From positions 21,445-53,444 of the forward strand of contig JAURWY010000010.1 of NCBI GenBank assembly GCA_030654695.1: a stretch of 32,000 nucleotides of DNA. The letters are read 5' to 3'. This document shows positions 162-13,229 of the stretch, one piece after another (positions within the stretch are counted from its first letter, which is position 1; each line of letters begins with the position of its first letter). The position numbers were made by a program, and so were the translations under genes. Source of the stretch: Polaromonas sp. (GTDB lineage Bacteria > Pseudomonadota > Gammaproteobacteria > Burkholderiales > Burkholderiaceae_C). The notes beneath the pieces were generated by a model, which saw only the letters and a program-made list of their open reading frames with translations, searched no databases and was not told where the DNA came from.

Positions 162-1097
162 CTACCCGCATGCGGTGCATGCCTGCATCGCAGTGCTGGT
201 TTGCCGCTGCGTCTCAGCCACGAGGTAATCGAGAAAAACGCGCGTACGTTCGGGTATGTACTTGCGGCTTGGCAAGGCGGCATACAAGGCCAAACGTCCC
301 GTGATCCAAGGCGGCAGCACGCGCACCAGTTCACCGCGTGTCAAATGCGCGGCAACCAGATTCACGGATACCGATGTGATCCCTGCCCCGTCCAGCGTGG
401 CGCGCAGCAGGGTGTCGGTGTGATTAGCCAACAGCACAGGCTGAACGTCGACCTCGACCACTTTGTCGATTTGTTCCGGACGCCACATACGCCATGTGCC
501 CGACCGACCACCCAGCCATTTCAGCCGCAAGCACTCGTGTTGGGCCAACTCTTCGGGGCATCGAGGTTGGCCTCGCCGCTTTAAATAGGCGGGCGACGCC
601 ACCAAGATGGCGTCAGACTCAATGACCTTGCGGGCCACCACATCCCCGTCAAAACTATCGTCCGTCCCGAGCAACGTGATGTCGTAATCCTCAATCGGCG
701 GCTCTTTGGCCGCCTCTACTTCAATCTCAATTTGGATCTTCGGATGCTGCCGCCGAAACTCGGCCAGCAGTGGGGCAAGCACATAGCTGGCCAGTACCGG
801 CGGCGCATGCAGGCGCAGCAAGCCGGCCAGTTCTGTCGTGTGCGAGCTGGCGACCGCATCGGCTTCGTCAATATCTTGCAGGATGTTGCGGACTCGTTGC
901 AGGTACGTTTGCCCGGCGTCTGTCAACGCCAAGCGCCGAGTGGTGCGCTGCAACAGGCGCGTCCCCAGGTGATCCTCTAAGTCGGCTACCAAGCGCGTGA
1001 CCACGGGCGAGGACATGTCCATGGCCCGGGCAGCCGCTGCAAATCCACCTTCATCCACCACGCGTTCAAACACGCGCATTGACAGCAATCGGTCCAT
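162..1097 (-). CDS. LysR-family transcriptional regulator
   Basis: N-terminal winged-HTH typical of LysR (MDRLLSMRVFERVVDEGGFAAAARAMDMSSPVVTRLVADLEDHLGTRLLQRTTRRLALTDAG) followed by a substrate-binding-domain-length C-terminus. Divergent from the next gene. Confidence 0.9.
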   Translation of the reverse strand: MDRLLSMRVFERVVDEGGFAAAARAMDMSSPVVTRLVADLEDHLGTRLLQRTTRRLALTDAGQTYLQRVRNILQDIDEADAVASSHTTELAGLLRLHAPPVLASYVLAPLLAEFRRQHPKIQIEIEVEAAKEPPIEDYDITLLGTDDSFDGDVVARKVIESDAILVASPAYLKRRGQPRCPEELAQHECLRLKWLGGRSGTWRMWRPEQIDKVVEVDVQPVLLANHTDTLLRATLDGAGITSVSVNLVAAHLTRGELVRVLPPWITGRLALYAALPSRKYIPERTRVFLDYLVAETQRQTSTAMQACTACG

Positions 1098-1300
1098 GGG
1101 GGCTCCAGTTCAGTCTTTCAAGCCCTTGATTATTCCATTTATAGAAACGGTAGTTTGTAAATACGGTTATTTATCATTGTCAATAGAAACTATAAAGTTA
1201 CTACATCGACGCAGCGCTTGCCACTGAAGCCTCTCCGAAACAGCTCCCAGCCGAGCCCTTTGACCGGCGGGCTTACTTGTTAACTTTGAAAGAAATCACC
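1098..1300. promoter_or_regulatory. Divergent LysR / DUF4148 intergenic control region with two ATAGAAAC copies
   Basis: AT-rich gap between divergent genes. ATAGAAAC occurs at 1141-1148 and 1183-1190, 42 bp apart. The second copy is part of the short dyad ATAGAAACTAT. Candidate LysR box; inference only. Confidence 0.3.
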
Positions 1301-1795
1301 ATGATGAAACGCTCTTACTTCACCGCCATCGCCCTGACCGCCGCCCTCGCAGGGGGTCAGGTCCTTGCGGCAGAGACCTCCACCGGCTTAACCCGCGACC
1401 AAGTTAAAGCCGAATTGGCCGAAGCAGTTCGCACCGGCAACATGGTGGGCAATGACGAAAGCGGCAAGATGCTCAATGAAATCTACCCCAGCCGCTACCC
1501 AGCCCAACCGGCTTACCAAGGCAAAACACGTGCACAAGTTCGGGCTGAATTGGCAGAAGCCGTGCGCACCGGCAATATCTTGGCGTACGACTCAAGCAGC
1601 AGCGGCAAGATGCTCAACGAGATCTACCCCAGCCGCTACCCAGCCCAACCAGCCTACCAAGGCAAAACACGTGCGAAAGTTCGGGCTGAATTGGCAGAAG
1701 CCGTCCGCACCGGCAACATCCTAGCCAACGACCCAAGCGGCAGCGGCAAGATGCTCAACGAGATCAACCCCGGCCTTTACGATCACGCCAGCTAA
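1301..1795 (+). CDS. Secreted DUF4148-like repeat protein (three TRxQVxAELAEAVRTGN motifs)
   Basis: ATG at 1301 is preferred over the TTG at 1277. Signal peptide MMKRSYFTAIALTAALAGGQVLAAE. The motif TR(D/A)QV(K/R)AELAEAVRTGN repeats three times, as in single-motif DUF4148 proteins of Burkholderiales. Confidence 0.75.
   Translation: MMKRSYFTAIALTAALAGGQVLAAETSTGLTRDQVKAELAEAVRTGNMVGNDESGKMLNEIYPSRYPAQPAYQGKTRAQVRAELAEAVRTGNILAYDSSSSGKMLNEIYPSRYPAQPAYQGKTRAKVRAELAEAVRTGNILANDPSGSGKMLNEINPGLYDHAS
1463..1771 (+). repeat. 141-bp (47-codon) tandem repeat inside the DUF4148-like gene, two full units plus a partial third
   Basis: Units begin with GGCAAGATGCTCAA at 1463, 1604 and 1745. They are nearly identical at DNA level: GKMLNEIYPSRYPAQPAYQGKTRA(Q/K)VRAELAEAVRTGNIL. 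Confidence 0.85.
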
Positions 1796-1898
1796 GTCGT
1801 TGAGTGACTGACCCACTCAGTGGGCATGGCACCCGGCATGACCGATTTAGAGCGGCGGCTGGGTGTTTTGCTGAGTGTCGATGGCATGAATCGAGGGT

Positions 1899-2882
1899 TC
1901 AATCCAATTTAATTTGGGCTGACTTGATCAACTTGGCCCATTCATTCAAGTCTTCACTGATTCGCATCGCAAACTCTTCCGACGAATCCGCCACAGGCTC
2001 CATGGCATCAGCAGCGATACGGGCTTGAAAATCCGGCCGCTTGATGATGGATGCCACATCGTCATGGATCTTTTTCACCACCTCTTTGGGCATGCCGGCA
2101 GGCCCCATGAAGCCGTACCAAGCTTCAATGCGGAATCCGGGTAGCGTCTCGGCGATGGCAGGGACTTGCGGCATGGCCTTGGATCTCTTGGCGCTGGTCA
2201 CCGCCAGCGCTTTGAGTTTGCCGCTTTTAGACAACTGAATTGACGCGGTGATGCCACCAAAAATCAAAGGCACATGTCCCGCCATCACATCATTAACGCC
2301 TTGGCCAAATCCCTTGTAAGGCACATGGGTGATTTTCACATCGGCCATGTGTTTAACCATTTCCATTGCCAAGTGTTGCTGGCCTCCGGCGCCAGATGAA
2401 GCGTAAGTGATTTCGCCGGGTCGCTGTTTGGCTAAGGCAATGAGGCTCTTCAGGTCGTTGGCGGGAAAATTCGGATTCGCCATCAGTACAAAAGGACCGC
2501 TTGCCGCATTGATGATGGGCGTTAAGTCTTTGGCCGCGTTGTACGGAACGTTGCTCAATAAATTAGGCGCAATGGTGATGGAGGCATCTGCTGCAAACAA
2601 CAAGGTGTAACCGTCCGGTGCAGACTTGACCACAAAGTCAGTGCCGATGGTGCCACTGGCACCTGTTTTGTTCTCGACCACCACAGACTGTTTCCAAAGA
2701 TTGGAAAGTTCTTGCGACAAGATACGCCCATAAATATCAGGCGTGCCACCAGGCGGGAACGTCACAATGACTTTGACCGGTTTGTTGGGATAGGCTTGGG
2801 CCCAAGCGGCCATCGGGTTGATGGCAATGAGACACAAACTGACAGGCAAGACACTCAACCATTGGCGCAGAATTTTTGTCAT
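1899..2882 (-). CDS. Bug-family (TctC-like) tripartite tricarboxylate transporter substrate-binding protein
   Basis: Signal peptide followed by the hallmark AYPNKPVKVIVTFPPGGTPDIYGRILSQEL...VVVENKTGASGTIGTDFVVKSAPDGYTLLF. Confidence 0.9.
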   Translation of the reverse strand: MTKILRQWLSVLPVSLCLIAINPMAAWAQAYPNKPVKVIVTFPPGGTPDIYGRILSQELSNLWKQSVVVENKTGASGTIGTDFVVKSAPDGYTLLFAADASITIAPNLLSNVPYNAAKDLTPIINAASGPFVLMANPNFPANDLKSLIALAKQRPGEITYASSGAGGQQHLAMEMVKHMADVKITHVPYKGFGQGVNDVMAGHVPLIFGGITASIQLSKSGKLKALAVTSAKRSKAMPQVPAIAETLPGFRIEAWYGFMGPAGMPKEVVKKIHDDVASIIKRPDFQARIAADAMEPVADSSEEFAMRISEDLNEWAKLIKSAQIKLD

Positions 2883-2974
2883 GATTTTTTAATTCAACGT
2901 TAAAAAATGGTGATTCTAGCTTTAGTGTCGCCCAGTGAAACATGCTGCCGTACAGCGACATTCTTTCGAGAAGT

Positions 2975-3029
2975 TGTTATAGAAAATTCACTCCACAGTG
3001 ACGGAATGGTTCAGCTAGTGAGTGATTTT
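2975..3029. other. Left island junction (attL-like): native glmS-tail remnant + GT crossover + 30-nt island arm P'
   Basis: Sequence agaaaattcactccaca-GT-gacggaatggttcagctagtgagtgatttt. The minus strand of 2988-3005 reads tcc gtc act gtg gag tga (S V T V E stop), an orphan copy of the glmS C-terminus. 3009-3029 is the reverse complement (20/21) of 11359-11379. Confidence 0.75.
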
Positions 3030-3044
3030 CGGACGAACTTAATG

Positions 3045-4853
3045 CTACCCGCGACCGTCTTTTTTTTTGGAGACCAGCGTGATCATGTCCGCTCCAGGAA
3101 CCACGTCATATTCCCGTCCCTCTAGCCCAGAGCGATTTTTCTTGATCCCATCATTGACGATGGGCAGGTGCATATGCAGCGTCATTTGGTGCTCGCGTTT
3201 TTCGTTGTCGTAGAGCACATCAATCCGCTTGACCAAGCCACCGAGGTACTCCTTCTTCTGCACATCAGTCAAAGCGTCCAACTTCTCTACTTCGTCGCCA
3301 AACGCTTTCAACCAGTTGACCCACTTCCGAGATTCAGCCGTCCCCCCAAGCTCTAGCCTTACGCTGGCAAGCTCAGTTTCGGTTTTCCCAACCTCTTCCC
3401 GAATTCGTTTCAGGGTTGTTTCGTAGCTGACATCGTTAATCTTGCCGATCAACTTATTTGCCTCAAGATTACCAAGCGTATCGCTCATTGAGGCGTAGTG
3501 CTTCTGCAATCTGCGAATCTTGGCTTGAATCGCCCTGATCTCCACATCAGTGCGAATCATGATGCCACTCTCTTTGAGTAATCGATGTTTGACTTCTTCT
3601 TTCAGGGTGCTGGACTTAGAATGAAGTGACGTAACCAAATCCCAGACCAGCTTGTCTGTCTGATGGATATTCATAGCACGAGCGAAACCACAACTAAGAC
3701 CACGCTGCCATGGCGTGTCTGACCCGCCATTAACCACCCAAGCTCGCTCTTTGTTGGGGCAGTAGTAAGAAGACTCTGCACGTGCCTTGATGATGCGACC
3801 GCTAATAGGACGCCCACAATGACCGCAGTGCATGAAGTCACGCAACATGTAGAAGTTCTTTTCCGTGGCGTTCTTCTGTGATTGTCTGAGTACCTCGCTG
3901 GAGCGCTTGTGCTGAGCAGCATTCCAGATCGTTTGATCAACGATGCTTGGGCATTGAACTTCAATTTTTTGATTAGATTTGCTGTCCGTGTAGATGTAGT
4001 GCCCTGAATAATGAGTGTTCTTTAACAGCGCATTGATAGAGCCAATAGTCCACAAACCTTTCTTTCGGCGAGGGCTGACGCCATTGGAATCAAGCATTCC
4101 CTTAATGTGAGTCGCGGCACTACCTTTCACGACCTCATGGAAAATTCTTTTGACCCATATGGACTCATCTTCAACTACGACCAGCTTTTTATCAACCAGC
4201 TTGTAGCCGTAAGGTGGGGGACCACCATGCCAGCTACCAGAACGTACACGACTAAGTTTCCCAAGACGTGTACGCTCCGCGCGTGTGACATTGTCAAATT
4301 CGGCGACTGCATCCAGAAGCTGTTTCAGAAATTTGTCTTGCGGGGATGACAGATCAAACTGACCATCCTTGGTGTAAAGCGTGACGCCTTGCTTGTTGCA
4401 TTCATATCGGAAGACCGATGCAACATTGTCATTGCGTGACAAGCGCGATTGGTCATATACCCACAGATGCTTGACCAATCCCGCCTTCATCGCTACATAG
4501 AGAGAATTCAATTCAGGACGGTCAGCAATGTTTTCATGGTGTGAGCTACGTCCACCTTCGTTCCAGACCTTGAATTCAAAACCAAGATCATTAGCTTTCT
4601 TGACTCCTAGCTCACGCTGGGACTCAAGCGAAGTACCCTGCTCAGCCTGTGCGACTGTAGATACGCGGGTGTAGATGTGCAGTGTTAGGTCTGCCGATGT
4701 AACGCCAGTCACGGGAAGTCTCTCAAAATCTTGATCCTGCCTAAAAATTGAGCATATTCCCTTTGCGCTTGAATTCCTATGCGTAAAGGGAAAATCAGCA
4801 AAATATGTTGGGGTTGTCCTTCGACAGCCCATTGATGTCCTTTTAAAGGACAT
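3045..4853 (-). CDS. Large serine recombinase (resolvase catalytic domain + recombinase domain + zinc ribbon + coiled coil)
   Basis: Catalytic motif HIYTRVSTVAQAEQGTSLESQ...LWVYDQSRLSRND. Recombinase domain (GGPPPYGYKL...IFHEVV...). Zinc ribbon CGHCGRPISG...YYCPNK...LSCGF. Long C-terminal coiled coil. The true start is probably the GTG at 4712 (GAGAGA 6 nt upstream, giving MTGVTSADLTLHIYTRVST). The ATG at 4853 lies inside a palindrome cluster. Confidence 0.92.
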   Translation of the reverse strand: MSFKRTSMGCRRTTPTYFADFPFTHRNSSAKGICSIFRQDQDFERLPVTGVTSADLTLHIYTRVSTVAQAEQGTSLESQRELGVKKANDLGFEFKVWNEGGRSSHHENIADRPELNSLYVAMKAGLVKHLWVYDQSRLSRNDNVASVFRYECNKQGVTLYTKDGQFDLSSPQDKFLKQLLDAVAEFDNVTRAERTRLGKLSRVRSGSWHGGPPPYGYKLVDKKLVVVEDESIWVKRIFHEVVKGSAATHIKGMLDSNGVSPRRKKGLWTIGSINALLKNTHYSGHYIYTDSKSNQKIEVQCPSIVDQTIWNAAQHKRSSEVLRQSQKNATEKNFYMLRDFMHCGHCGRPISGRIIKARAESSYYCPNKERAWVVNGGSDTPWQRGLSCGFARAMNIHQTDKLVWDLVTSLHSKSSTLKEEVKHRLLKESGIMIRTDVEIRAIQAKIRRLQKHYASMSDTLGNLEANKLIGKINDVSYETTLKRIREEVGKTETELASVRLELGGTAESRKWVNWLKAFGDEVEKLDALTDVQKKEYLGGLVKRIDVLYDNEKREHQMTLHMHLPIVNDGIKKNRSGLEGREYDVVPGADMITLVSKKKDGRG

Positions 4854-4854
4854 C
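4757..4854. promoter_or_regulatory. Cluster of three dyad symmetries in the leader of the LSR gene
   Basis: TTCCCTTTGCGC (4757-4768) pairs with GCGTAAAGGGAA (4781-4792), 12-bp arms with 1 mismatch. GGGTTGTC-CTTC-GACAGCCC at 4811-4830. A perfect 21-nt palindrome GATGTCCTTT-T-AAAGGACATC at 4834-4854. Confidence 0.55.
4834..4854. repeat. Island palindrome copy 1 (GATGTCCTTT-T-AAAGGACATC)
   Basis: Perfect 10-nt arms around T4844. Located between the stop of the 327-aa ORF (4857) and the LSR gene. Confidence 0.9.
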
Positions 4855-4856
4855 TT

Positions 4857-5840
4857 TTAATGACTTGATACCTTGGTTCGGAGTCTATTCGCCGCTGGCG
4901 ACAACTTATTGGACTTATTTGCTTTGGACAGCTCCATCAATCTTGCTTTTTCAACCTTAATCCACTTTGTATGTTCTAGAAGTCGTTGAGCAATCTGAGG
5001 ATATTCAAACTCCGTCAATTCAACTGATTGATCAGACGGGAAATAGCCTCTAGCTGCGTTTTCAGCTAATGCTTCAAACTTCTTCAATGCCCTGAAAGTG
5101 ATCTTACTCATGATGATGCGGTCATCTTGCTCAATAGCATCCTTGCTTTTGCGTGGTCCATTCGGATCAAGCACGCCAGAGTAGCTTTTGCTCAAATTAC
5201 CTTTGGCTCCAAGTCGCCACAACTCCCAATTTGGCTTCGCTGACTTCAACCACAACAACCTCAAGCCAGTGAAGATCGCATTGGCATGCAATCGCTTACC
5301 CATCAACTTGACCTTAGCTTGCGTGTCCAAAATTTCTGGCGCTTTTAAATCATCAAGTAATTTTTTGATTTGCTTCAGGACATCAGACTGCTTCTGATTC
5401 AATGGTAAGGCTACCAAGACTGATGCATTCAAGCCCTCTTCATCCCGTCCATTTTTCAAATAAAAGTCCAAGTCGGCGTTGAGTTGATCAGCTGAAACCC
5501 CCACGCCAGCAGCAAGTACCGCAACTTGATGAACGGCGGGCTTTTTGAACGGATTGCCGAATGCCTGCAATCCATGCTGGAGCCACCAAGTTCTGAACAA
5601 GACTTTGTTCACATCACCAAACAAGTCGTACATCTCAAGCACACGCTCGAAGTCCGAAGGCAGACGCGCTTTGTCGGTATTGTTCAGCCCTTTAGTCTTG
5701 GCTTTTCTTGCCAATTCATACGTAGGACTCACCCTTAAAAACTCAAACATTAGCTGGTAGCCCGCCGTTGGTTGCGCATGCCAATTGGGTTGCGAGAAAT
5801 CGCCGCCCCTCAAAGTCCAAAGCATCAGTGTTTTAGGCAT
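4857..5840 (-). CDS. Hypothetical protein, 327 aa, immediately upstream of and co-oriented with the LSR
   Basis: Long ORF with island-like composition. Its stop is 3 nt from the annotated LSR ORF. The N-terminal segment NWHAQPTAGYQLMFEFLRVSPTYELARKA is faintly reminiscent of the WEFLRRNPxY motif of regulator-like domains on mobile elements. This is unverified. Confidence 0.7.
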   Translation of the reverse strand: MPKTLMLWTLRGGDFSQPNWHAQPTAGYQLMFEFLRVSPTYELARKAKTKGLNNTDKARLPSDFERVLEMYDLFGDVNKVLFRTWWLQHGLQAFGNPFKKPAVHQVAVLAAGVGVSADQLNADLDFYLKNGRDEEGLNASVLVALPLNQKQSDVLKQIKKLLDDLKAPEILDTQAKVKLMGKRLHANAIFTGLRLLWLKSAKPNWELWRLGAKGNLSKSYSGVLDPNGPRKSKDAIEQDDRIIMSKITFRALKKFEALAENAARGYFPSDQSVELTEFEYPQIAQRLLEHTKWIKVEKARLMELSKANKSNKLSPAANRLRTKVSSH

Positions 5841-5978
5841 ATAAATGTCAACAAATAATTTGCATAATTAGCAGTATACAAAATTAAATGACGAAATACA
5901 TACAATAGAAGCATGAACAAAACAAAAGACATTCAGTCCTTGTTTGATGTTCATAAAGCTCTTTCCAAAGGAATAAAA

Positions 5979-6785
5979 ATGAGCCAATCTATCGCCTCCA
6001 TCCCTACGTCTACAACTTCTACTGCTGCTGAAAATGCTGTTTCGGCATCCGCCACACTCAACATCCGTCAACGGATTGAAGCCTTGGCTGACAAGCGTGA
6101 AGTATGGGAATCGACTCTGTACTCACGCTCGAATACTGCGCTGTACTCGATCTTTGCTGAATGCTTGGCTTTGTATCGTGATCTGACAGAAGGTGACGGC
6201 GTCAAAGCCAAGAAAAGTGGCTTCACCGATTACATCAATCTCAAGGGCTATACGTTCAAAGAATCATCTCCTCTGAGTTTGAAAGTGATTCGTTGCGTTT
6301 TCGGTGATAAAGACCGTCGCCGTCTGTCCACTTATCACTCGGTCTTACTTGTCGCTATCGCCGACAAATGGGACGAGATGGAAGTTGCGCAGAAGATCGC
6401 TGATCGCGGTGGCGTACAGGAAATTTCCTTGACCAAGCCTGGCGGAATGACTGCAAAAGACAAAGCAAACGCCGCCCGCAACGCTTTGATGAATCAGTCC
6501 ATCGCATCACTGACCAGCGACGCTATTTCCAAGCAGTTCAACACGGAGAACATTGGAGATAACGCTGTTGCTGTTTTGACGCTCAATAGTGATGGCACGT
6601 ACAGCGTTCATTGTGTTGTTCGCAGCACAACCGCTGTCAATGCGGCTCTCACAAGTTATTTTTCCGCAAACAAAGAAGCACTGAAAGGACTTCAAGAGAA
6701 CAAGCAAATGCAAGACGATGAAGCTCAAAAAGCCTTGCTCATTTCTAACGCAGCCAACGATTCTCAAAATCAGGCTGCAGCTTGA
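5979..6785 (+). CDS. Hypothetical protein (268 aa from ATG 5979; alternative ATG at 5913)
   Basis: AAGGA lies 8-12 nt upstream of 5979. Ser/Thr/Ala-rich N-terminus, then a globular region (REVWESTLYSRSNTALYSIFAECLALYRDL...). Divergent from the 327-aa gene and followed by the ATPase gene. Confidence 0.7.
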   Translation: MSQSIASIPTSTTSTAAENAVSASATLNIRQRIEALADKREVWESTLYSRSNTALYSIFAECLALYRDLTEGDGVKAKKSGFTDYINLKGYTFKESSPLSLKVIRCVFGDKDRRRLSTYHSVLLVAIADKWDEMEVAQKIADRGGVQEISLTKPGGMTAKDKANAARNALMNQSIASLTSDAISKQFNTENIGDNAVAVLTLNSDGTYSVHCVVRSTTAVNAALTSYFSANKEALKGLQENKQMQDDEAQKALLISNAANDSQNQAAA

Positions 6786-6791
6786 ACCCAA

Positions 6792-6818
6792 TGAGTGCGG
6801 GATTTATCCCCGCACTCA
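6792..6818 (+). other. Perfect 10-bp hairpin between the 268-aa gene and the ATPase gene
   Basis: TGAGTGCGGG (6792-6801), 7-nt loop, CCCGCACTCA (6809-6818). No downstream T-tract, so it is not a canonical terminator. Confidence 0.6.
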
Positions 6819-6840
6819 ATCACACCAGATTGGAATAGAA

Positions 6841-7494
6841 ATGTTGAATGACAAAGATTTTTTGCCCACGACTCTGACCGAGTGCGTGATTTCTGATGTC
6901 CTTTCAAAGGACATGCTCACAAAGATCGTCACCAAGGTGATTCCGTTTCCTGCCTTTGGCAAGTGCGGCATCATCCTGCACGGTCCTTACGGGACCGGTA
7001 AAACTACTCTCGCAAAACTGCTCCCTAAATTGATTGAGAAGGAGTACGGGAGTGAAGACGCCTATTTAAATTTGCACCAATGTGCGCAGGGCTTGAACGG
7101 TTCATCATTGATGAATCGGATTCAGATTGCGACTCAGTTTGTTAGCCTGAATAAAAGTGGCTTGCACTTCACCATCTTGGATGAAGTAGACAACCTGACC
7201 GAAGCCGCTCAAGCATCGCTCAAGGCAATCATGACGGGACTGCATGGCATCTTCATCATGACGACTAACAACATTACTGCGTTGGACAGAGGCGTGGTGA
7301 ACCGCAGCCATGTTGTAAACATGATGGTGGCAAACCCCCAAGACTGGTTGCCACTCGTTAAACGAATCATTGATGGCTACGGTGCCAACTTACCACCAGA
7401 TTCTTCATTGATCCCCGTTATTGCGGCATGTAACGGCTCTGCCCGTGACATTAGTAGTGCCGCTGTTCAGGTCGCCATCCAATCCATCAAATAG
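6841..7494 (+). CDS. Clamp-loader (RFC small subunit / T4 gp44)-like AAA+ ATPase, truncated (217 aa, no collar domain)
   Basis: ATG at 6841 preceded by GGAA. Walker A GPYGTGKTT. Walker B with clamp-loader signature TILDEVDNLTEAAQASLKAIMT. FIMTTNNITALDRGVVNRSHVV parallels the xTxNxxxxIxxxLxSRC block of RFC/gp44. The short lid domain ends with a GSARDISSAAVQ-type segment. Confidence 0.85.
   Translation: MLNDKDFLPTTLTECVISDVLSKDMLTKIVTKVIPFPAFGKCGIILHGPYGTGKTTLAKLLPKLIEKEYGSEDAYLNLHQCAQGLNGSSLMNRIQIATQFVSLNKSGLHFTILDEVDNLTEAAQASLKAIMTGLHGIFIMTTNNITALDRGVVNRSHVVNMMVANPQDWLPLVKRIIDGYGANLPPDSSLIPVIAACNGSARDISSAAVQVAIQSIK
6896..6914. repeat. Island palindrome copy 2 (ATGTCCTTT-C-AAAGGACAT) inside codons ~19-25 of the ATPase gene
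   Basis: Perfect 9-nt arms around C6905. Confidence 0.9.
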
Positions 7495-7514
7495 AGCAAT
7501 GAACTCAAACCACC

Positions 7515-7541
7515 AAGCCAGCCAAAGTGCTGGCTTTTTTG
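7515..7541 (+). terminator. Rho-independent terminator after the ATPase gene
   Basis: AAGCCAGC (7515-7522), loop CAAAGT, GCTGGCTT (7529-7536), running into TTTTTTGTTG. Confidence 0.8.
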
Positions 7542-7542
7542 T

Positions 7543-7559
7543 TGTCCTTTGAAAGGACA
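7543..7559. repeat. Island palindrome copy 3 (TGTCCTTT-G-AAAGGACA)
   Basis: Perfect 8-nt arms around G7551. Lies between the terminator and the stop codon of the tyrosine recombinase gene (7561). Confidence 0.9.
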
Positions 7560-7560
7560 T

Positions 7561-8163
7561 TCACGATAGCAACTCAACAGCCGTACGCATCATCATGGGG
7601 TTCACGTCTATGTATTTCTGTGTGACTGCCATGGACCTGTGACCCGCCAGTTCCATGAGCACACGAACGGAAACGCCCATGTTTGCTAAGTTCGTAATGA
7701 ATGAACGGCGCGAACTGTGACTTGATGCACCTGTGATCCCTGCGCCTTTGTAGATGTAGTGAAAGTGCTGTGCCAGTGTGGAAGGTGTGAAGCCGCGATT
7801 GGGTTCTTTCTGAGTCGTGAATAAAGCACGGTTTGTGTCAGTCATGGTCACTGCCAATAATTCCTTCAACCTAAAGCGTGTTTGCAGGTAGTTTTTAATT
7901 TCTTCTTGTGCCTTTTCTGACAAGACCACGATCCTGCCACGTGAGCCCTTCGTTTGGTCTGCCGACAGACGTACTTCCTCAACGATGTTTCCGTCATTAG
8001 TCAATACATCGCAAAGCTGAAGCGATGCAAGTTCACCAACTCGCATGCCTGTTGCATTGAGCAGGGCGAACATTGCTCGATTTCTTGTCGAGTGCTTGCG
8101 TGATGCTATGTAGAGAAGGACCTTGCGAACTTCTTTTTCATTCAATACTTTTGCTTGTGCCAT
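7561..8163 (-). CDS. Short tyrosine recombinase (catalytic domain only, FimB/FimE-sized)
   Basis: Catalytic signature in order: TGMRVGEL (Arg), QTKGSRGRIV (Lys hairpin), SHSSRRSF (His-x-x-Arg), GHRSMAVTQKYIDV (His ... Tyr). Only about 35 residues precede the first Arg, so there is no N-terminal core-binding domain. AAGGA RBS upstream. Confidence 0.88.
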   Translation of the reverse strand: MAQAKVLNEKEVRKVLLYIASRKHSTRNRAMFALLNATGMRVGELASLQLCDVLTNDGNIVEEVRLSADQTKGSRGRIVVLSEKAQEEIKNYLQTRFRLKELLAVTMTDTNRALFTTQKEPNRGFTPSTLAQHFHYIYKGAGITGASSHSSRRSFITNLANMGVSVRVLMELAGHRSMAVTQKYIDVNPMMMRTAVELLS

Positions 8164-8702
8164 TTGTGTTTTTCCTTACAAATCAAATCTTTGACATGTA
8201 TTTAGTTTGATCCCATTGATTAGGTCGGACAAGCCTTTTGGGATAAAAAAGGTTCCTCTTGTAAATCAACGACTTAGCTCGAAATCAAAACTCCCTGCTA
8301 TTTGTTTTGATTTTTGTGGGACTCGTTCTGAGCGTGAGTTCCGCTGCCGATTGCCCTTGGTCATCACCGATCTGAAAATCGTTTGTAGTTTGTCCTGATG
8401 CGTCAGTTCATGACACAAACGAGCCATGCATGCAATTGCAAAAGTTGAATTCGTGAAAGCCGACACGAAAGTTCATCTTCGTGTTCAGATCGACGTTTGA
8501 GACGCTTTTTTGTGCCTTCCGTGTACGGGTCGCAGCTATGTGATTGCATCTCTTGTGCTTGGATCTGATCTGCGTCCTGAGCAATTTGCTGTACCAGTGT
8601 TTCATTGAACTCGATACCCATGTTTTTTATTCACATGAAATTCAGACATGGCTCCGCTATTAAAGGGTCAACAGACACCTCTCGCCACATCGAAAGGAGC
8701 AA

Positions 8703-9254
8703 TCACTCAGCAGAAGATGGGGAACATGAAGGCAGAAGAACATTCATCCAGTCGATGCTCTCCCTGTTTGCGAACAATGTGTTCTTTGTTGAATAGCCAA
8801 CCCATCCATGATCCCGATACGGTTTGACTATGACTTGACGACCACCAAATGGTGAGTCAGCCCAAATCGCTTTGACCTTTGACTCGACTATTTCAAAACG
8901 ATCCTCGCCCACTCCAAGATGGCAGTGGTAGTGCGGCTTCTGACCGTCATTCAGACCCTCAAGAATAGGAATGAACAAAAGATTTCCACGCCTGTTGCCG
9001 TACAGCGATTTGTCCAACTTCCATTTGAAGTACCTCATGCTCCCATGCAATAGCTGTAAGACATCGGGGTGATTCAATGGTTTCGTAATGTTGCCTTTGC
9101 GAAGGGAATTCCAAAGGTGATTGATGTCGAAGGTCAAAGTCAGTGCATGGGTGATGAGGTGTTCGTGCTGCATTGCCCATGCTTCGTTTTGGTCACGAAA
9201 TTTGTTCAACTTTGCTTTGTATTGGTCATTGAGTTGATCGGTCAGTGTTGTCAT
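8703..9254 (-). CDS. Small HUH-superfamily Rep-like protein (putative rolling-circle initiator)
   Basis: Ordered motifs: I ALTLTFD; II KPHYHCHLGV (His-hydrophobic-His), preceded by FKWKLDKSLYGNRRGNLLFIPILE as in phage/plasmid Rep (G2P-like) proteins; III GWVGYSTKN (YxxK). The ORF itself is solid. The function is inferred from motifs only. Confidence 0.6.
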   Translation of the reverse strand: MTTLTDQLNDQYKAKLNKFRDQNEAWAMQHEHLITHALTLTFDINHLWNSLRKGNITKPLNHPDVLQLLHGSMRYFKWKLDKSLYGNRRGNLLFIPILEGLNDGQKPHYHCHLGVGEDRFEIVESKVKAIWADSPFGGRQVIVKPYRDHGWVGYSTKNTLFANRESIDWMNVLLPSCSPSSAE

Positions 9255-9380
9255 AAAACTATTTATGCCAAACCAACAGAAACCACAAAAAAATCAAATG
9301 ATGGGTGCCGATCTTGGCTAGGAATCGAAATGACACGGCAATAGGCTCGATCTCATTCATCAACAAACAAGGAGATTTCA

Positions 9381-9839
9381 ATGAGTGCAATTCTTTCGAG
9401 TCTGAAATTGGTCAACGCAAAACGCCAGAATTCAATCGACCCGGTTGTCTTTCGTCGTAACAAGCTGAATGAAAAGCTGAAAGTTCAGATCGCTATGGCG
9501 CAGGCGATGAACAAGGGTGAAACGTTCACAGTGAAACGTATGCGCAACGTGCGTGATGCAGTCACAGGACAGACTTCACTCGTAGAAGTCAGCAAGCGAG
9601 TCAAGCAATGGTGGTTCGTGAACAACGACACCAAAAAGATTGCCGTTCAAATCTTCTACGGCAACAAGGTGATGGACCTTGCGAAGGGTAAGAACGCGGT
9701 CGAAGTTGCCAATGGCGACGAGCTAGTCAACGTTTTGTCAAAGCTCCAAGAAGCTGTACTTGATGGTTCGCTGGATGCTCAGATCGAACAGGCAGCGGAT
9801 TCGGTGAAGGCGCGCTTTGCGAAGTGCGCAAGGCAATGA
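9381..9839 (+). CDS. Hypothetical protein, 152 aa
   Basis: Strong RBS (AAGGAG 7 nt upstream). Plausible composition. Followed by a perfect hairpin. It resembles small conserved hypotheticals I associate with proteobacterial mobile elements, but I cannot verify that. Confidence 0.7.
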   Translation: MSAILSSLKLVNAKRQNSIDPVVFRRNKLNEKLKVQIAMAQAMNKGETFTVKRMRNVRDAVTGQTSLVEVSKRVKQWWFVNNDTKKIAVQIFYGNKVMDLAKGKNAVEVANGDELVNVLSKLQEAVLDGSLDAQIEQAADSVKARFAKCARQ

Positions 9840-9845
9840 TTGATC

Positions 9846-9872
9846 GTGAGCGTCCAGTGGCGGGACGCTCAC
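9846..9872 (+). terminator. Perfect 10-bp GC-rich hairpin after the 152-aa gene
   Basis: GTGAGCGTCC (9846-9855), loop AGTGGCG, GGACGCTCAC (9863-9872). The T-run follows only after the adjacent palindrome (9891-9895). Confidence 0.55.
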
Positions 9873-9891
9873 ATGTCCTTTGAAATGACAT
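9873..9891. repeat. Island palindrome copy 4 (ATGTCCTTT-G-AAATGACAT, one arm mismatch)
   Basis: Directly abuts the hairpin at 9846-9872. About 50 nt upstream of the 114-aa ORF. Confidence 0.8.
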
Positions 9892-9939
9892 TTTTCAACT
9901 AGCGCTGGCACCAAACTTAATGCACCGATAAATACATGT

Positions 9940-10284
9940 ATGAAGATCAATGAAGTCACAACCAATCTCAATACCTACGTTGCCACTGTCCGTGTTGTCT
10001 TGCGCAATGGAACGACCATGGCGAAAACTCATGTGATCGCTGATGGGATCAATCAAGCTCGAATGTTGCTCATGCACTTGTATGGCGAGAGCAACGTCTT
10101 GTTACTTCAAGCCGTTATCGATAAGGATATGACTGAAGGCACGAAGACGCTTACAGCATCTGAGTTGCAGGTCAAGTCAATGACTGACCGCGCCAAACAA
10201 CTGAATCAGCAAGCGAAACAGACGAGAGCACGGCAGTCATTAAAGGATGCTCAGCATAAGCTAAATTTGGCAAGCCAGAAATAA
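9940..10284 (+). CDS. Hypothetical protein, 114 aa (C-terminal basic/coiled region)
   Basis: ORF of island-like composition. No convincing RBS. Confidence 0.45.
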   Translation: MKINEVTTNLNTYVATVRVVLRNGTTMAKTHVIADGINQARMLLMHLYGESNVLLLQAVIDKDMTEGTKTLTASELQVKSMTDRAKQLNQQAKQTRARQSLKDAQHKLNLASQK

Positions 10285-10395
10285 TTAAGGTGTAGTTTTT
10301 AATTATCCAAATAGCGTTATTAAATTTAGAATTATTTATTTGTTAATTAACTAATTTAATAGAAAATTATAGAAAAAATAAGTTATTTAAATCTA

Positions 10396-10926
10396 TTATT
10401 TTTTCACTTCTTTGGCGATAGCTTTAGCAAGTTCTTCTCTTTCATAGCGCGCATTATCCATATCTTTCGATACTTTTTTCTTTATATTTTTTATATCATC
10501 TTCAGTTAGACCTGCAGCCAATGCTTTTTTATCGTTGGACTTTGATTGCACAATGTACCCAACAATTATGCATCCAAAAAACCATAGTAAACCCACGCCT
10601 AAAGACATAAAAAATGCTGCTATTGATGCTGCCATAATAAATGCACCATACATATAGTAATTTGCAGCCTCTGCCTTAAGCTCTTTTTGCATTAATTGAA
10701 TTGTTTCATCTAGAGGCTTCGCTCTATCCGTCAATTCCGTTAACATCTTAGTTAATACTTTAATTTCTGCAGTACAACTATTAATCTTATTCACATTTTC
10801 TTCTTCAATTGCTATTTTTTGTTGATATTCAACTTCTTTAAATTTAGCCGAGTTTGAAGTTACTTCACTTGAAATCTGCATTCTTTCTTTTATCAATTCA
10901 CTAAGTTCTGCCATTTTGGACTCCAA
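10396..10926 (-). CDS. Coiled-coil membrane protein with two adjacent TM helices (176 aa) in an extremely AT-rich segment
   Basis: N-terminal heptad-like region of about 85 aa. Hydrophobic hairpin YYMYGAFIMAASIAAFFMSLGVGLLWFFGCIIVGYIV. Charged C-terminal helix. Codon usage is very AT-biased, unlike the rest of the island. Confidence 0.7.
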   Translation of the reverse strand: MESKMAELSELIKERMQISSEVTSNSAKFKEVEYQQKIAIEEENVNKINSCTAEIKVLTKMLTELTDRAKPLDETIQLMQKELKAEAANYYMYGAFIMAASIAAFFMSLGVGLLWFFGCIIVGYIVQSKSNDKKALAAGLTEDDIKNIKKKVSKDMDNARYEREELAKAIAKEVKK

Positions 10927-11010
10927 TTGTTAATTTATTGTAAAAATTGTAACTTTATGTCTTTTCCTGCGTTCAGTCAATAGAGTGCAGCTGAATTAGC
11001 GTCCCGTTTG

Positions 11011-11058
11011 TTGACACATCTTGACTCAGACCATCAGATCTAAGTCGAGATGTGTCAA
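11011..11058. repeat. 16-bp inverted repeat (TTGACACATCTTGACT / AGTCGAGATGTGTCAA) with a 16-nt loop
   Basis: Arms at 11011-11026 and 11043-11058, 1 mismatch. Each arm carries a TTGACA hexamer. Located between the small ORF (stop 11065) and the AT-rich gene. Confidence 0.7.
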
Positions 11059-11064
11059 ATCATG

Positions 11065-11337
11065 TCATTCAACCCACAGGTCCAGCAACTCCGGCTCAAC
11101 CTTTAATGTGAGCCGTTCCATCCTGAGTTTCCCTTTCTTGTAGATAGAAAAGACATGCTCAGCACCAAGCAAGCAGCCATTGATTGAACGAGTGCCAGCC
11201 CTAGTCAACAGCTTGGCAATCGCCTCAAACGTCAATTGCTCACGTTCACGCAACAAAAAGACCCTATCAAACAGCCGTTGCTGACTGCTTGTATAGGGTC
11301 CTATGAAAAGCGCCTTGGTTTTCAGTCTGACGACCAT
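11065..11337 (-). CDS. Small hypothetical protein (90 aa from ATG 11337; the ORF extends to a GTG at 11370 inside the att arm), possible HTH
   Basis: The segment REREQLTFEAIAKLLTRAGTRSINGCLLGAEHVFSIYKKG looks like an HTH / recombinase-domain-like DNA-binding stretch. No clear RBS. Confidence 0.4.
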   Translation of the reverse strand: MVVRLKTKALFIGPYTSSQQRLFDRVFLLREREQLTFEAIAKLLTRAGTRSINGCLLGAEHVFSIYKKGKLRMERLTLKVEPELLDLWVE

Positions 11338-11358
11338 CAGCAGTGCTGACGCATCGTC

Positions 11359-11415
11359 AAAATTACTCACTAGCTGAACTACTCCACGGTGACGCTCTTC
11401 GCCAGATTCCGTGGT
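11359..11415. other. Right island junction (attR-like): 30-nt island arm P + GT crossover + native glmS sequence
   Basis: Sequence aaaattactcactagctgaactactccacg-GT-gacgctcttcgcc... The arm supplies the last codons and the TAG stop of the functional glmS. Confidence 0.75.
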
Positions 11416-13229
11416 TTGTCCACATCCGTCCCCCGCGCGCAGGCGGTGTGATACGCGAGCAATTGCAACGGCACCACGTGCAGCATGGGGCTCAGGGGGC
11501 CGTAGTGTTCGGGCATGCGGATGACGTGAATGCCTTCGCCGCTTTCAATGCGCGTGTCGGCGTCGGCCAGCACGTAGAGCACGCCGCCACGGGCCCGCAC
11601 TTCTTGCAAATTGCTTTTGAGCTTTTCAAGCAGGCTGTCGTTGGGAGCCACCGTGACCACCGGCATGGCGCTGGTCACCAGCGCCAGCGGGCCGTGTTTG
11701 AGCTCACCGGCCGGGTAGGCCTCGGCGTGGATGTAGCTGATTTCTTTCAGCTTGAGCGCGCCTTCCATGGCGATCGGGTAGTGCAGGCCGCGGCCTAAAA
11801 ACAGCGCATTTTCCATCTTCGCAAAGTCTTCTGACCAACTGATGATTTGCGGCTCCAGCGCCAGCACAGCTTGCAGCGCCGCCGGCAAGTGGCGCATGGC
11901 TTTCAAGTGCGCGGCTTCGTCTTCTTCCGTCAAGCGGCCTTTACTTTGCGCCAAGGCCAAGGTGAGTAAAAACAGACCCGCCAATTGCGCCGTGAAGGCC
12001 TTGGTGGACGCCACACCGATCTCGACGCCAGCGCGGGTGATGTAGGCCAACTTGCATTCGCGCACCATCGCCGAGGTGGCGACGTTGCAGATGGTCAGGG
12101 TTTGCGTCATGCCCAGGCTTTGCGCATGGCGCAGCGCGGCCAGCGTGTCGGCGGTTTCGCCGCTTTGTGTGATGGTGACGACCAGCGTGCGTGGGTTCGG
12201 CACGCTGGTGCGGTAGCGGTATTCGCTGGCGACTTCCACCTGCGTCGGAATGCCGGCAATGCTTTCCAGCCAATATTTGGCGGTGCAGCCGCTGTAGTAA
12301 CTGGTGCCGCAGGCCAGGATCAACACCGAATCAATGTCCTTGAAGGTGCGGTAAGCCGCGTCGCCAAACAGCTCGGGCACGATGGCGTTGACGCCTTCCA
12401 GCGTGTCGGCAATGGCGCGCGGCTGCTCAAAAATTTCTTTTTGCATGTAGTGGCGATACGGCCCGAGTTCGGCCGCGCCGCTGTGCGCTTGCACGGTTTT
12501 GACCTCGCGCTTGACGGCCTTGTGTTGGCGGTCAAAGACCCAGTATTTGCCCAGCTGAATGTCGATCAAATCGCCTTCTTCGAGGTAGACAATCTGGTCC
12601 GTCACGCCGGCCAGCGCCATCGCGTCACTGGCCAAAAAGTGCTCAGCGCCGTCTTTGCCGACGCCCAAAATCAAGGGCGAACCAGCGCGCGCGCCGACCA
12701 CGCGGTGCGGCTCGTCTTTGCAAAAAGCGGCAATGGCGTAGGCACCATGCAATTGCGTGACGGCGGCTTTCAGCGCCTCAAACAAGTCGCCGTCGTACAG
12801 GCTGTCGACCAAATGCACGATGACTTCGGTGTCGGTCTGGCTCTGAAACAGATAGCCTTTGGCCTGCAAAGCAGCACGCAATTCGTCATGGTTTTCAATG
12901 ATGCCGTTGTGCACCAAAGCCACTTTGCCGGGACGTTGTGCCGCGTCTGCGCCGCTGCCGTGGCTGAAATGTGGGTGCGCATTGTGCACCGCCGGCGCGC
13001 CGTGCGTGGCCCAGCGCGTGTGCGCAATGCCGGTGCCGCCTTCAAGGTGTTCGGCGCTGACCTGCGCTTGCAGTTCGGCCACGCGCGAGGTGCTGCGCGC
13101 TCGCTTCAGGCCGTCCACATACACCGCCACGCCGCACGAGTCGTAGCCGCGGTATTCAAGGCGTTGCAAACCCTGCACGAGGATGGGAACGATGTTGCGG
13201 TTAGAAACCGCGGCGACGATACCGCACAT
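11379..13229 (-). CDS. glmS: Glutamine--fructose-6-phosphate aminotransferase (isomerizing)
   Basis: MCGIVAAV N-terminal nucleophile Cys. GATase-2 domain plus two SIS domains. Canonical C-terminus [13 protein letters not shown]. Confidence 0.97.

Follow-up and report, generated by a model that had tools for sequence, protein, structure and literature searches.

SCCmec is a genomic island driven by a large serine recombinase (LSR) that resides in the last codons of rlmH (orfX) in staphylococci, where a look-alike gene end carried by the element preserves the protein. Tn7 is a DDE-type transposon that relies on a separate selector, TnsD, to insert approximately 25 bp downstream of the glmS stop codon; Tn7-like elements have the TnsA/B/C core genes, a TnsD-type selector and a 5-bp duplication. 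In this study, we analysed a 32,000-nucleotide stretch of DNA (hereafter the window) from Polaromonas sp. (GenBank assembly GCA_030654695.1, contig JAURWY010000010.1, positions 21,445 to 53,444 of the forward strand), in which an island encoding an LSR interrupts the very end of the essential gene glmS. As in the SCC/Ccr system, the insertion lies within the final codons of a housekeeping gene whose end the island rebuilds, and the LSR of the island is distantly homologous to CcrA, CcrB and CcrC. The differences are that glmS takes the place of rlmH as the target, that Proteobacteria are the hosts, and that the element has only one LSR and a small cargo (5–11 kb). With Tn7 it shares the use of the conserved glmS 3' end as a safe landing site at which the gene stays functional, whereas strand exchange by a serine recombinase would, in the window, take place within the coding sequence itself, at the fourth-last codon, and no Tns genes are present.

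The original prediction, made from the nucleotide sequence alone, had placed the island inside the glmS stop region and had read out both of its junctions, and our analysis reproduces them letter for letter (coordinates of all features are collected in Table 1). On the forward strand, the left junction reads cactccaca-GT-gacggaatggttcagctagtgagtgatttt and the right junction aaaattactcactagctgaactactccacg-GT-gacgctcttcgcc. Each island arm extends exactly 30 nt from a GT, and the two arms are reverse complements of each other at 24 of 30 positions, with 20/21 in the outer part and 4/9 in the inner part, figures that came out identical when recomputed. The binomial probability of a match of at least 24/30 arising by chance is 4e-10, and an unbiased repeat search returned the arm pair as the strongest long inverted repeat (27 nt, 89%). 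Joining the arms reconstructs a 62-bp dyad-symmetric attP, aaaatcactcactagctgaaccattccgtcACcgtggagtagttcagctagtgagtaatttt. The open reading frame of the LSR has its stop codon at 3045–3047, leaving the predicted 15 nt to the left arm. At the other end of the island, glmS is split between the Val and Thr codons of KSVTVE-stop, within its last four codons; the glmS-side arm contributes C GTG GAG TAG, that is, the replacement "(AC)C GTG GAG TAG", and the gene now ends AAG AGC GTC ACC GTG GAG TAG. The protein still terminates in KSVTVE, and the old VTVE-stop tail lies 8.4 kb away, both as had been claimed. The G+C content is 0.33–0.50 between approximately 3000 and 11400 compared with 0.55–0.66 in the rest of the window and approximately 0.58–0.62 in the flanks. 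An Rfam scan of the window returned no RNA family, and no tRNA was found in the window or in the related loci L001, L002 and L007.

An island-free version of the site was found on a metagenome contig. Exact-protein look-up of the window GlmS gave no record; a contig of 1,695 nt, L039, was found because it encodes a protein identical to the TctC-family protein on the left flank of the island (1899–2882). On L039, glmS runs directly into the left flank (...ggaatctggcgaagagcgtcACtgtggagtgaattttctataac...). The site reads ggaatctggcgaagagcgtcACtgtggagtgaattttc and is identical in every letter to the attB that had been predicted for related island-free genomes. When aligned to the window from which the island has been deleted in silico, L039 is colinear and unbroken over 1,663 nt at 97.5% identity. 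Against the real window, blastn aligns it to 1822–3003 and 11381–11874, and the 14-nt overlap between the two segments is the core common to both junctions. It follows that the island measures 8,391 bp and that island-free relatives of this Polaromonas exist.

The joined form of the ends was looked for in metagenome contigs with the pattern CTGAACCANTCNGTCACNGTGGAGTAGTTCAGC, which sets the inner parts of both arms side by side and cannot match the integrated junctions. A single contig matched, L040 (10,032 nt); the attP pattern scan of viral contigs gave 0 matches. L040 lacks glmS and encodes an LSR that is 86% identical to that of the window. Starting 12 nt past its LSR stop codon, it reads AAAATTACTCACTACCTGAACCAGTCCGTC-AC-CGTGGAGTAGTTCAGCTAGTGAGTAATTTT, an intact 62-bp dyad attP, followed directly by a homologue of p101, the island gene that lies next to glmS in the window. 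Compared with the island integrated in Limnohabitans sp. Rim28 (L001), L040 is circularly permuted, with 163–4067 matching the LSR end and 4049–4418 matching the glmS end of that island. Its termini map only approximately 20–30 nt apart on a third relative, L041, and the contig therefore covers essentially the whole circle. The circular junction that the original prediction had suggested searching for was hence recovered from a related element, while that of the exact window element was not found. Further contigs of close relatives that we considered as circles, L041–L044, proved to be integrated copies. Within L040 (2344–4379), the LSR gene is followed by attP and then by p101 in the same direction of transcription, as a single unit in which only about 70 nt separate the two genes. 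On integration the LSR gene and p101 end up at the two extremities of the island, so that p101 could be expressed differently in the integrated and the excised state.

The point of strand exchange can be narrowed down by comparing junctions with their ancestral sites. The window junctions differ from L039 only outside GTCAC, which confines the exchange to these 5 nt, and comparison of the L001 junctions (GTG-AC-C and GTC-AC-g) with the attP of the 90%-identical L040 (GTC-AC-C) confines it to AC. This AC (GT on the forward strand) is the exact dyad centre in at least 10 elements. From these comparisons we infer that strands are exchanged at the central AC of the Thr codon, in agreement with the crossover dinucleotide named in the original prediction. 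Among the 11 elements for which both junctions could be read, 10 have arms that form inverted repeats in the 30+2+30 register, and L034 keeps this arrangement even though its LSR is only 30% identical to that of the window. The arm sequences themselves vary among elements, e.g., ACTCACTAGCTGAAC, ACCCCCGTTGGAAAC and GAACACTCTTCCGAAC, and such co-variation would be expected if every LSR recognises the arms of its own element. In all reconstructed attP sites there is also the sequence TCN GTN AC N GTN GAR TAR, a look-alike of the GlmS end, which in the window spans 18 nt (TCC GTC AC-C GTG GAG TAG). Conservation of attB is very uneven, with 0.24 bits per nt beyond the stop codon vs approximately 1.4 on the coding side, and the requirement for the half-site beyond the stop codon is possibly relaxed.

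As judged from sequence comparison, the site pair thus has the short dyad attP, the simple attB and the central non-palindromic dinucleotide of an LSR system. These are properties that it shares with the serine integrases SPbeta SprA/YokA, A118, TP901-1, PhiC31 and Bxb1, which likewise have a 2-nt non-palindromic crossover and to which the window LSR shows detectable homology and the same domain architecture. In contrast to the phage systems, the window element has no recognisable virion genes. Furthermore, the stretch over which attP and attB look alike is unusually long for a serine integrase, up to approximately 15/18 nt, because attP imitates the gene end, and the half of attB past the stop codon lacks conservation from host to host.

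The LSR itself is 100% identical to a 555-aa NCBI protein from a Polaromonas metagenome-assembled genome. It matches the Pfam families Resolvase (PF00239, 4.7e-19) and Recombinase (PF07508, 7e-14), while the match to Zn_ribbon_recom (PF13408) is weak at 19.1 bits, below the 25.3 cutoff; this domain is on record for many of its homologues, and four cysteines (C296, C299, C318 and C341) are invariant. In the motif YTRVST, R16 and the presumed catalytic serine S18 are conserved in 14 relatives. The family profile matches the solved LSRs SPbeta YokA, A118, TP901-1 and PhiC31. The possibility that the protein is a Ccr recombinase was ruled out, as it falls far under the cutoffs of all three models (CcrB, 73.7 bits with a cutoff of 900; CcrA, 63.2 with 700; CcrC, 39.8 with 900), and its score is also far below the XisF family cutoff. 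The earlier comparison with the SCCmec strategy at rlmH is therefore apt as an analogy, though the protein is not a Ccr. Among 50,697 phage records no LSR exceeds 26% identity to that of the window, and the best-covering matches listed from 72,556 plasmid records reach no more than 24%. By these sequence measures, the island LSR is a member of the LSR superfamily that stands outside the Ccr family or any other named family.

A total of 941 homologues of the LSR are detectable. Taking one genome per species gave 38 loci, for which flanks of up to 10 kb were fetched, and glmS lies within these flanks in 20 of them. Of 35 loci that keep the 3' end of the LSR gene, 32 have a VTVE-stop within approximately 50 nt of the LSR stop codon, 24 in the form of a stranded same-strand tail and 8 as the convergent, functional end of glmS. 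The question raised originally, whether relatives of the LSR also neighbour glmS, can accordingly be answered in the affirmative. The hosts are Betaproteobacteria (Limnohabitans, Polynucleobacter, Sheuella, Zwartia, Rhodocyclaceae and Methylophilaceae), Gammaproteobacteria (Marinomonas and Lysobacter) and Alphaproteobacteria (Magnetovibrio, Rhodospirillaceae and SAR116), and LSR identities among the relatives go down to 30%. At eight loci, including L008, L009, L010, L012, L017 and L037, the element is reversed relative to glmS and the LSR-side arm gives the new stop codon; attP has therefore been turned around with respect to the LSR gene in the course of the family's history. The open-access papers searched, among them the LSR/att catalogue of Durrant et al., 2022 (PMC10083194) with its supplements, describe no integration of an LSR element or island in glmS, and we regard this LSR clade and its target as previously undescribed.

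Several members of the family show peculiarities of their own. In L007, L014, L016, L021, L022 and L023 the LSR reading frame crosses the arm and stops at the stop codon of the stranded glmS tail, so that the recombinase ends in TVE-stop and its gene overlaps its own att site. L016, a Methylophilaceae chromosome (OZ271845.1), carries an LSR relative with a stranded glmS tail; its fetched flanks contain no tRNA-Met, only a tRNA-Gly approximately 8.7 kb downstream of the LSR stop. In L021 the sequence between the glmS end and the stranded tail is reduced to a 1,757-bp remnant (245–2011), in which the N-terminus of p101 is fused in frame to an LSR that has lost the catalytic serine region; this remnant is a decayed and presumably immobile copy. 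L010 (Sheuella amnicola) has VTVE-stop motifs at 2724, 9895 and 12395, the third, internal one being associated with a different arm approximately 800 nt upstream of the LSR gene, and this internal motif may have been left behind by a previous integration event at the site or by a nested one. The minimal island of 5.4 kb, in a member of the Rhodocyclaceae (L006), holds only p101, a few unrelated genes and the LSR gene, and none of the backbone genes described below for the close subfamily; its unrelated genes (1929–4172) include a 226-aa serine recombinase of the resolvase/invertase type and a 501-aa protein made of repeated CxxC Cys-pair units.

We consider the window island to be an integrative mobile island whose LSR recombined the dyad attP of a circular form with an attB at the end of glmS, and we would put the probability of this reading at roughly 90%. 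According to this model, the LSR of the circular element would pair the ~62-bp dyad attP with an attB spanning the last glmS codons, and strands would be exchanged at the AC of the Thr codon in Ser-Val-Thr-Val-Glu-stop, after which the final 10 nt of the coding sequence would come from the island, together with a new stop codon. Because attP imitates the glmS end, GlmS would be unchanged after integration and the original tail would be left 8.4 kb away. The LSR is the likely catalyst of integration. The element presumably still excises, a reaction that would be expected to require a directionality factor, and p183, the HUH Rep-like protein of the island (see below), may copy the circle once it is excised.

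A number of observations weigh against this reading. L040 has no terminal overlap, and a tandem or otherwise rearranged copy could be its source; it also stems from a relative, as the metagenome scan gave no attP of the window element's own. The empty site in L039 comes from a 97.5%-identical relative and thus from another strain than the window. Three of the 35 loci lack the exact VTVE-stop motif, with an SMTVE-stop variant in L029 and no motif in L032 and L035. No directionality factor was found among the island genes, and the model of the widely shared p101 has a pLDDT of only 62 and no fold match. Some of these points would fit an island that entered by LSR recombination and has since lost its mobility, so that the sites are historical scars: the excised form of the exact window element was not seen, and decayed relatives such as the L021 remnant do exist. 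We find such a fixed relic unlikely, if still the most serious of the alternatives, since the LSR reading frame is unbroken and retains its conserved catalytic and zinc-ribbon residues, the two arms are still intact (24/30) and a related element was caught with its ends joined. Moreover, the empty site in a 97.5%-identical relative argues for recent gain or loss.

A further objection to integration by the LSR is that the island encodes a second recombinase, a tyrosine recombinase with a strong Phage_integrase domain, which might integrate and excise the island and leave the LSR with another role, e.g., in resolution or inversion. In the nearest mention that the literature search gave, the 'tycheposon' fGI-3 of freshwater and marine Methylophilaceae, a flexible island bordered by glmS and tRNA-Met, is credited to an xerD-type tyrosine recombinase (PMC10872708). 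Like the window island, fGI-3 is a variable island bordered by glmS in the same kind of freshwater Betaproteobacteria (PMC10872708), but the window has no tRNA, and its tyrosine recombinase occurs only in close relatives (L001, L002, L003, L005, L019, L030, L031 and L040). The same target and arm architecture are found without a tyrosine recombinase in L006, L015, L023, L025, L034 and all inverted-type loci. Being confined to close relatives, the tyrosine recombinase is not the integrase of the island; it also lacks an N-terminal DNA-binding domain. An att arm is always found directly beside the LSR gene, the 30+2+30 dyad of the ends is the arrangement known from LSR attP sites, and no tRNA is involved. 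This alternative therefore strikes us as very improbable, and part of the Methylophilaceae island at the edge of glmS may instead be an element of the window's kind. Still less credible is a Tn7-like or other transposon guided to glmS by a TnsD-type selector. The 3' end of glmS is the classical attTn7 site, but Tns proteins and DDE transposases have no match among the 10 proteins of the island. The insertion point is within the coding sequence and not approximately 25 bp downstream, nothing beyond the shared core is duplicated at the target, no Tn7-type terminal repeats were found, and the joined ends form a dyad site beside the LSR gene. Recombination of attP with the glmS end by the LSR is thus the reading that we adopt.

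The remaining genes of the island belong mostly to a backbone shared by the close subfamily, which in the direction of LSR transcription consists of p101, variable cargo, p114, the DUF6641 gene, p183, the tyrosine recombinase gene, the AAA+ ATPase gene, p290, p327 and the LSR gene. The gene most widely shared with the LSR is p101, with tblastn matches in 11 loci (L001, L003, L005, L006, L010, L015, L017, L027, L031, L032 and L040). It has no match in Pfam, PHROG, NCBIfam or PADLOC, none of its 226 homologues has a Pfam domain, and its poor AlphaFold2 model returned nothing below E=0.5 in Foldseek. We also considered p101 to be a product of read-through from glmS, an explanation that fails generally, as p101 points the opposite way in inverted-type elements. 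In p183, residues H108-x-H110, Y146 and Y154 are invariant, and REP_ORF2-G2P (PF23343) is matched, below threshold, by 18 of 23 homologues. Its AlphaFold2 model (pLDDT 83) has the nuclease domains of parvovirus NS1, adeno-associated virus Rep and circovirus Rep as top Foldseek matches, although these are weak (E approximately 6e-3 to 7e-2, TM approximately 0.35). It is thus probably a small HUH Rep-like nuclease, which suggests that nicking or replication of the excised circle is possible. It shows no similarity to a 175-aa protein of L006.

Copies of p327 that are 57–59% identical adjoin the LSR gene in L001 and L040, and the DUF6641 protein is 85–90% identical in the closest relatives. In size, the tyrosine recombinase resembles FimB/FimE-type invertases. 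A defence-system scan gave only a weak TRIP13-like AAA match, and no transfer genes were recognised in the island. The lowest G+C content of the island, 0.33–0.36, is found in the 10000–11000 block, where the 176-aa protein, which has no relatives in the other fetched loci, is probably recently acquired cargo. Finally, a 19-nt perfect palindrome, ATGTCCTTTNAAAGGACAT, occurs four times in the window island, with one copy between p327 and the start of the LSR gene and one upstream of p114, and twice in the related island L002 (3032–3048 and 7891–7907). This palindrome might serve as an operator, or else be a sequence on which the small tyrosine recombinase acts.

Table 1. Coordinates of the island, its junctions and its genes in the window.
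Feature	Position	Strand	Remarks
Integrated island	3000..11390	-	8,391 bp, from crossover GT to crossover GT, right-hand GT included; G+C drop; blastn break against L039
glmS-distal junction (P arm, crossover, B' flank)	2968..3029	-	Arm 3000–3029; GT 2998–2999; old chromosomal flank up to and including 2997
glmS-side junction (B arm, crossover, P' arm)	11359..11420	-	Arm 11359–11388; GT 11389–11390; glmS coding flank from 11391
Stranded original glmS tail, GTC ACT GTG GAG TGA (VTVE-stop)	2988..3002	-	Identical to the intact glmS end in the empty site L039
glmS, kept intact	11379..13229	-	Last 10 nt and stop codon island-derived
Large serine recombinase, 555 aa	3045..4712	-	Probable start GTG at 4712; longer ATG reading frame to 4853 starts inside the palindrome
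p327, 327 aa, function unassigned, backbone gene of the close subfamily	4857..5840	-	No family match
p290, 290 aa, function unassigned	5913..6785	+	
AAA+ ATPase, clamp-loader-like similarity	6718..7494	+	Pfam AAA 8.6e-9; PHROG clamp-loader families 5.7e-17
Tyrosine recombinase, 200 aa, catalytic domain only	7561..8163	-	Pfam Phage_integrase 1.2e-29
p183, 183 aa, probable HUH rolling-circle Rep-like nuclease	8703..9254	-	
DUF6641 protein, backbone gene of the close subfamily	9381..9839	+	Pfam 4e-10; phrog_31551 2.9e-24
p114, 114 aa, function unassigned	9940..10284	+	
176-aa protein, coiled-coil/membrane-like by eye	10396..10926	-	Lowest-G+C block
p101	11065..11370	-	101 aa from GTG inside the arm, or 90 aa from ATG at 11337
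19-nt perfect palindrome ATGTCCTTTNAAAGGACAT	4835..4853, 6896–6914, 7542–7560, 9873–9891	.	4 matches vs 0.01 expected by chance

The mechanism suggested by these comparisons would be conventional LSR integration, and what appears to be new is the target and the breadth of the family that uses it, along with the possibly relaxed need for the far half of attB. More tentatively, the LSR clade might be a natural single-protein counterpart of Tn7 targeting of glmS, one that reads mainly the coding half of attB plus 10 nt, tolerates an essentially arbitrary far half and could thereby act as a broad-host-range 'safe-harbour' integrase; the LSR-attP-p101 unit, which is present only in the circle and is split upon integration, might in addition serve as a sensor of the integrated or excised state. 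Recognition limited to sites conserved by GlmS function would explain the spread of the family over three proteobacterial classes. If the main reading is true, Tn7/TnsD and the LSR clade, two unrelated machineries, have converged on the same few dozen base pairs as a genomic safe harbour, and the LSR, with a natural attB in a gene end that is almost universal and constrained in sequence, would be a candidate one-protein, unidirectional, broad-host integration tool for Proteobacteria that complements mini-Tn7. The at least 13 reconstructed natural attP/attB pairs with co-varying arms provide material on how half-sites are read by the zinc-ribbon and recombinase domains, as well as on how an LSR copes with a half-site that is not conserved. 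For freshwater bacteria, the flexible islands found beside glmS may need to be re-annotated.

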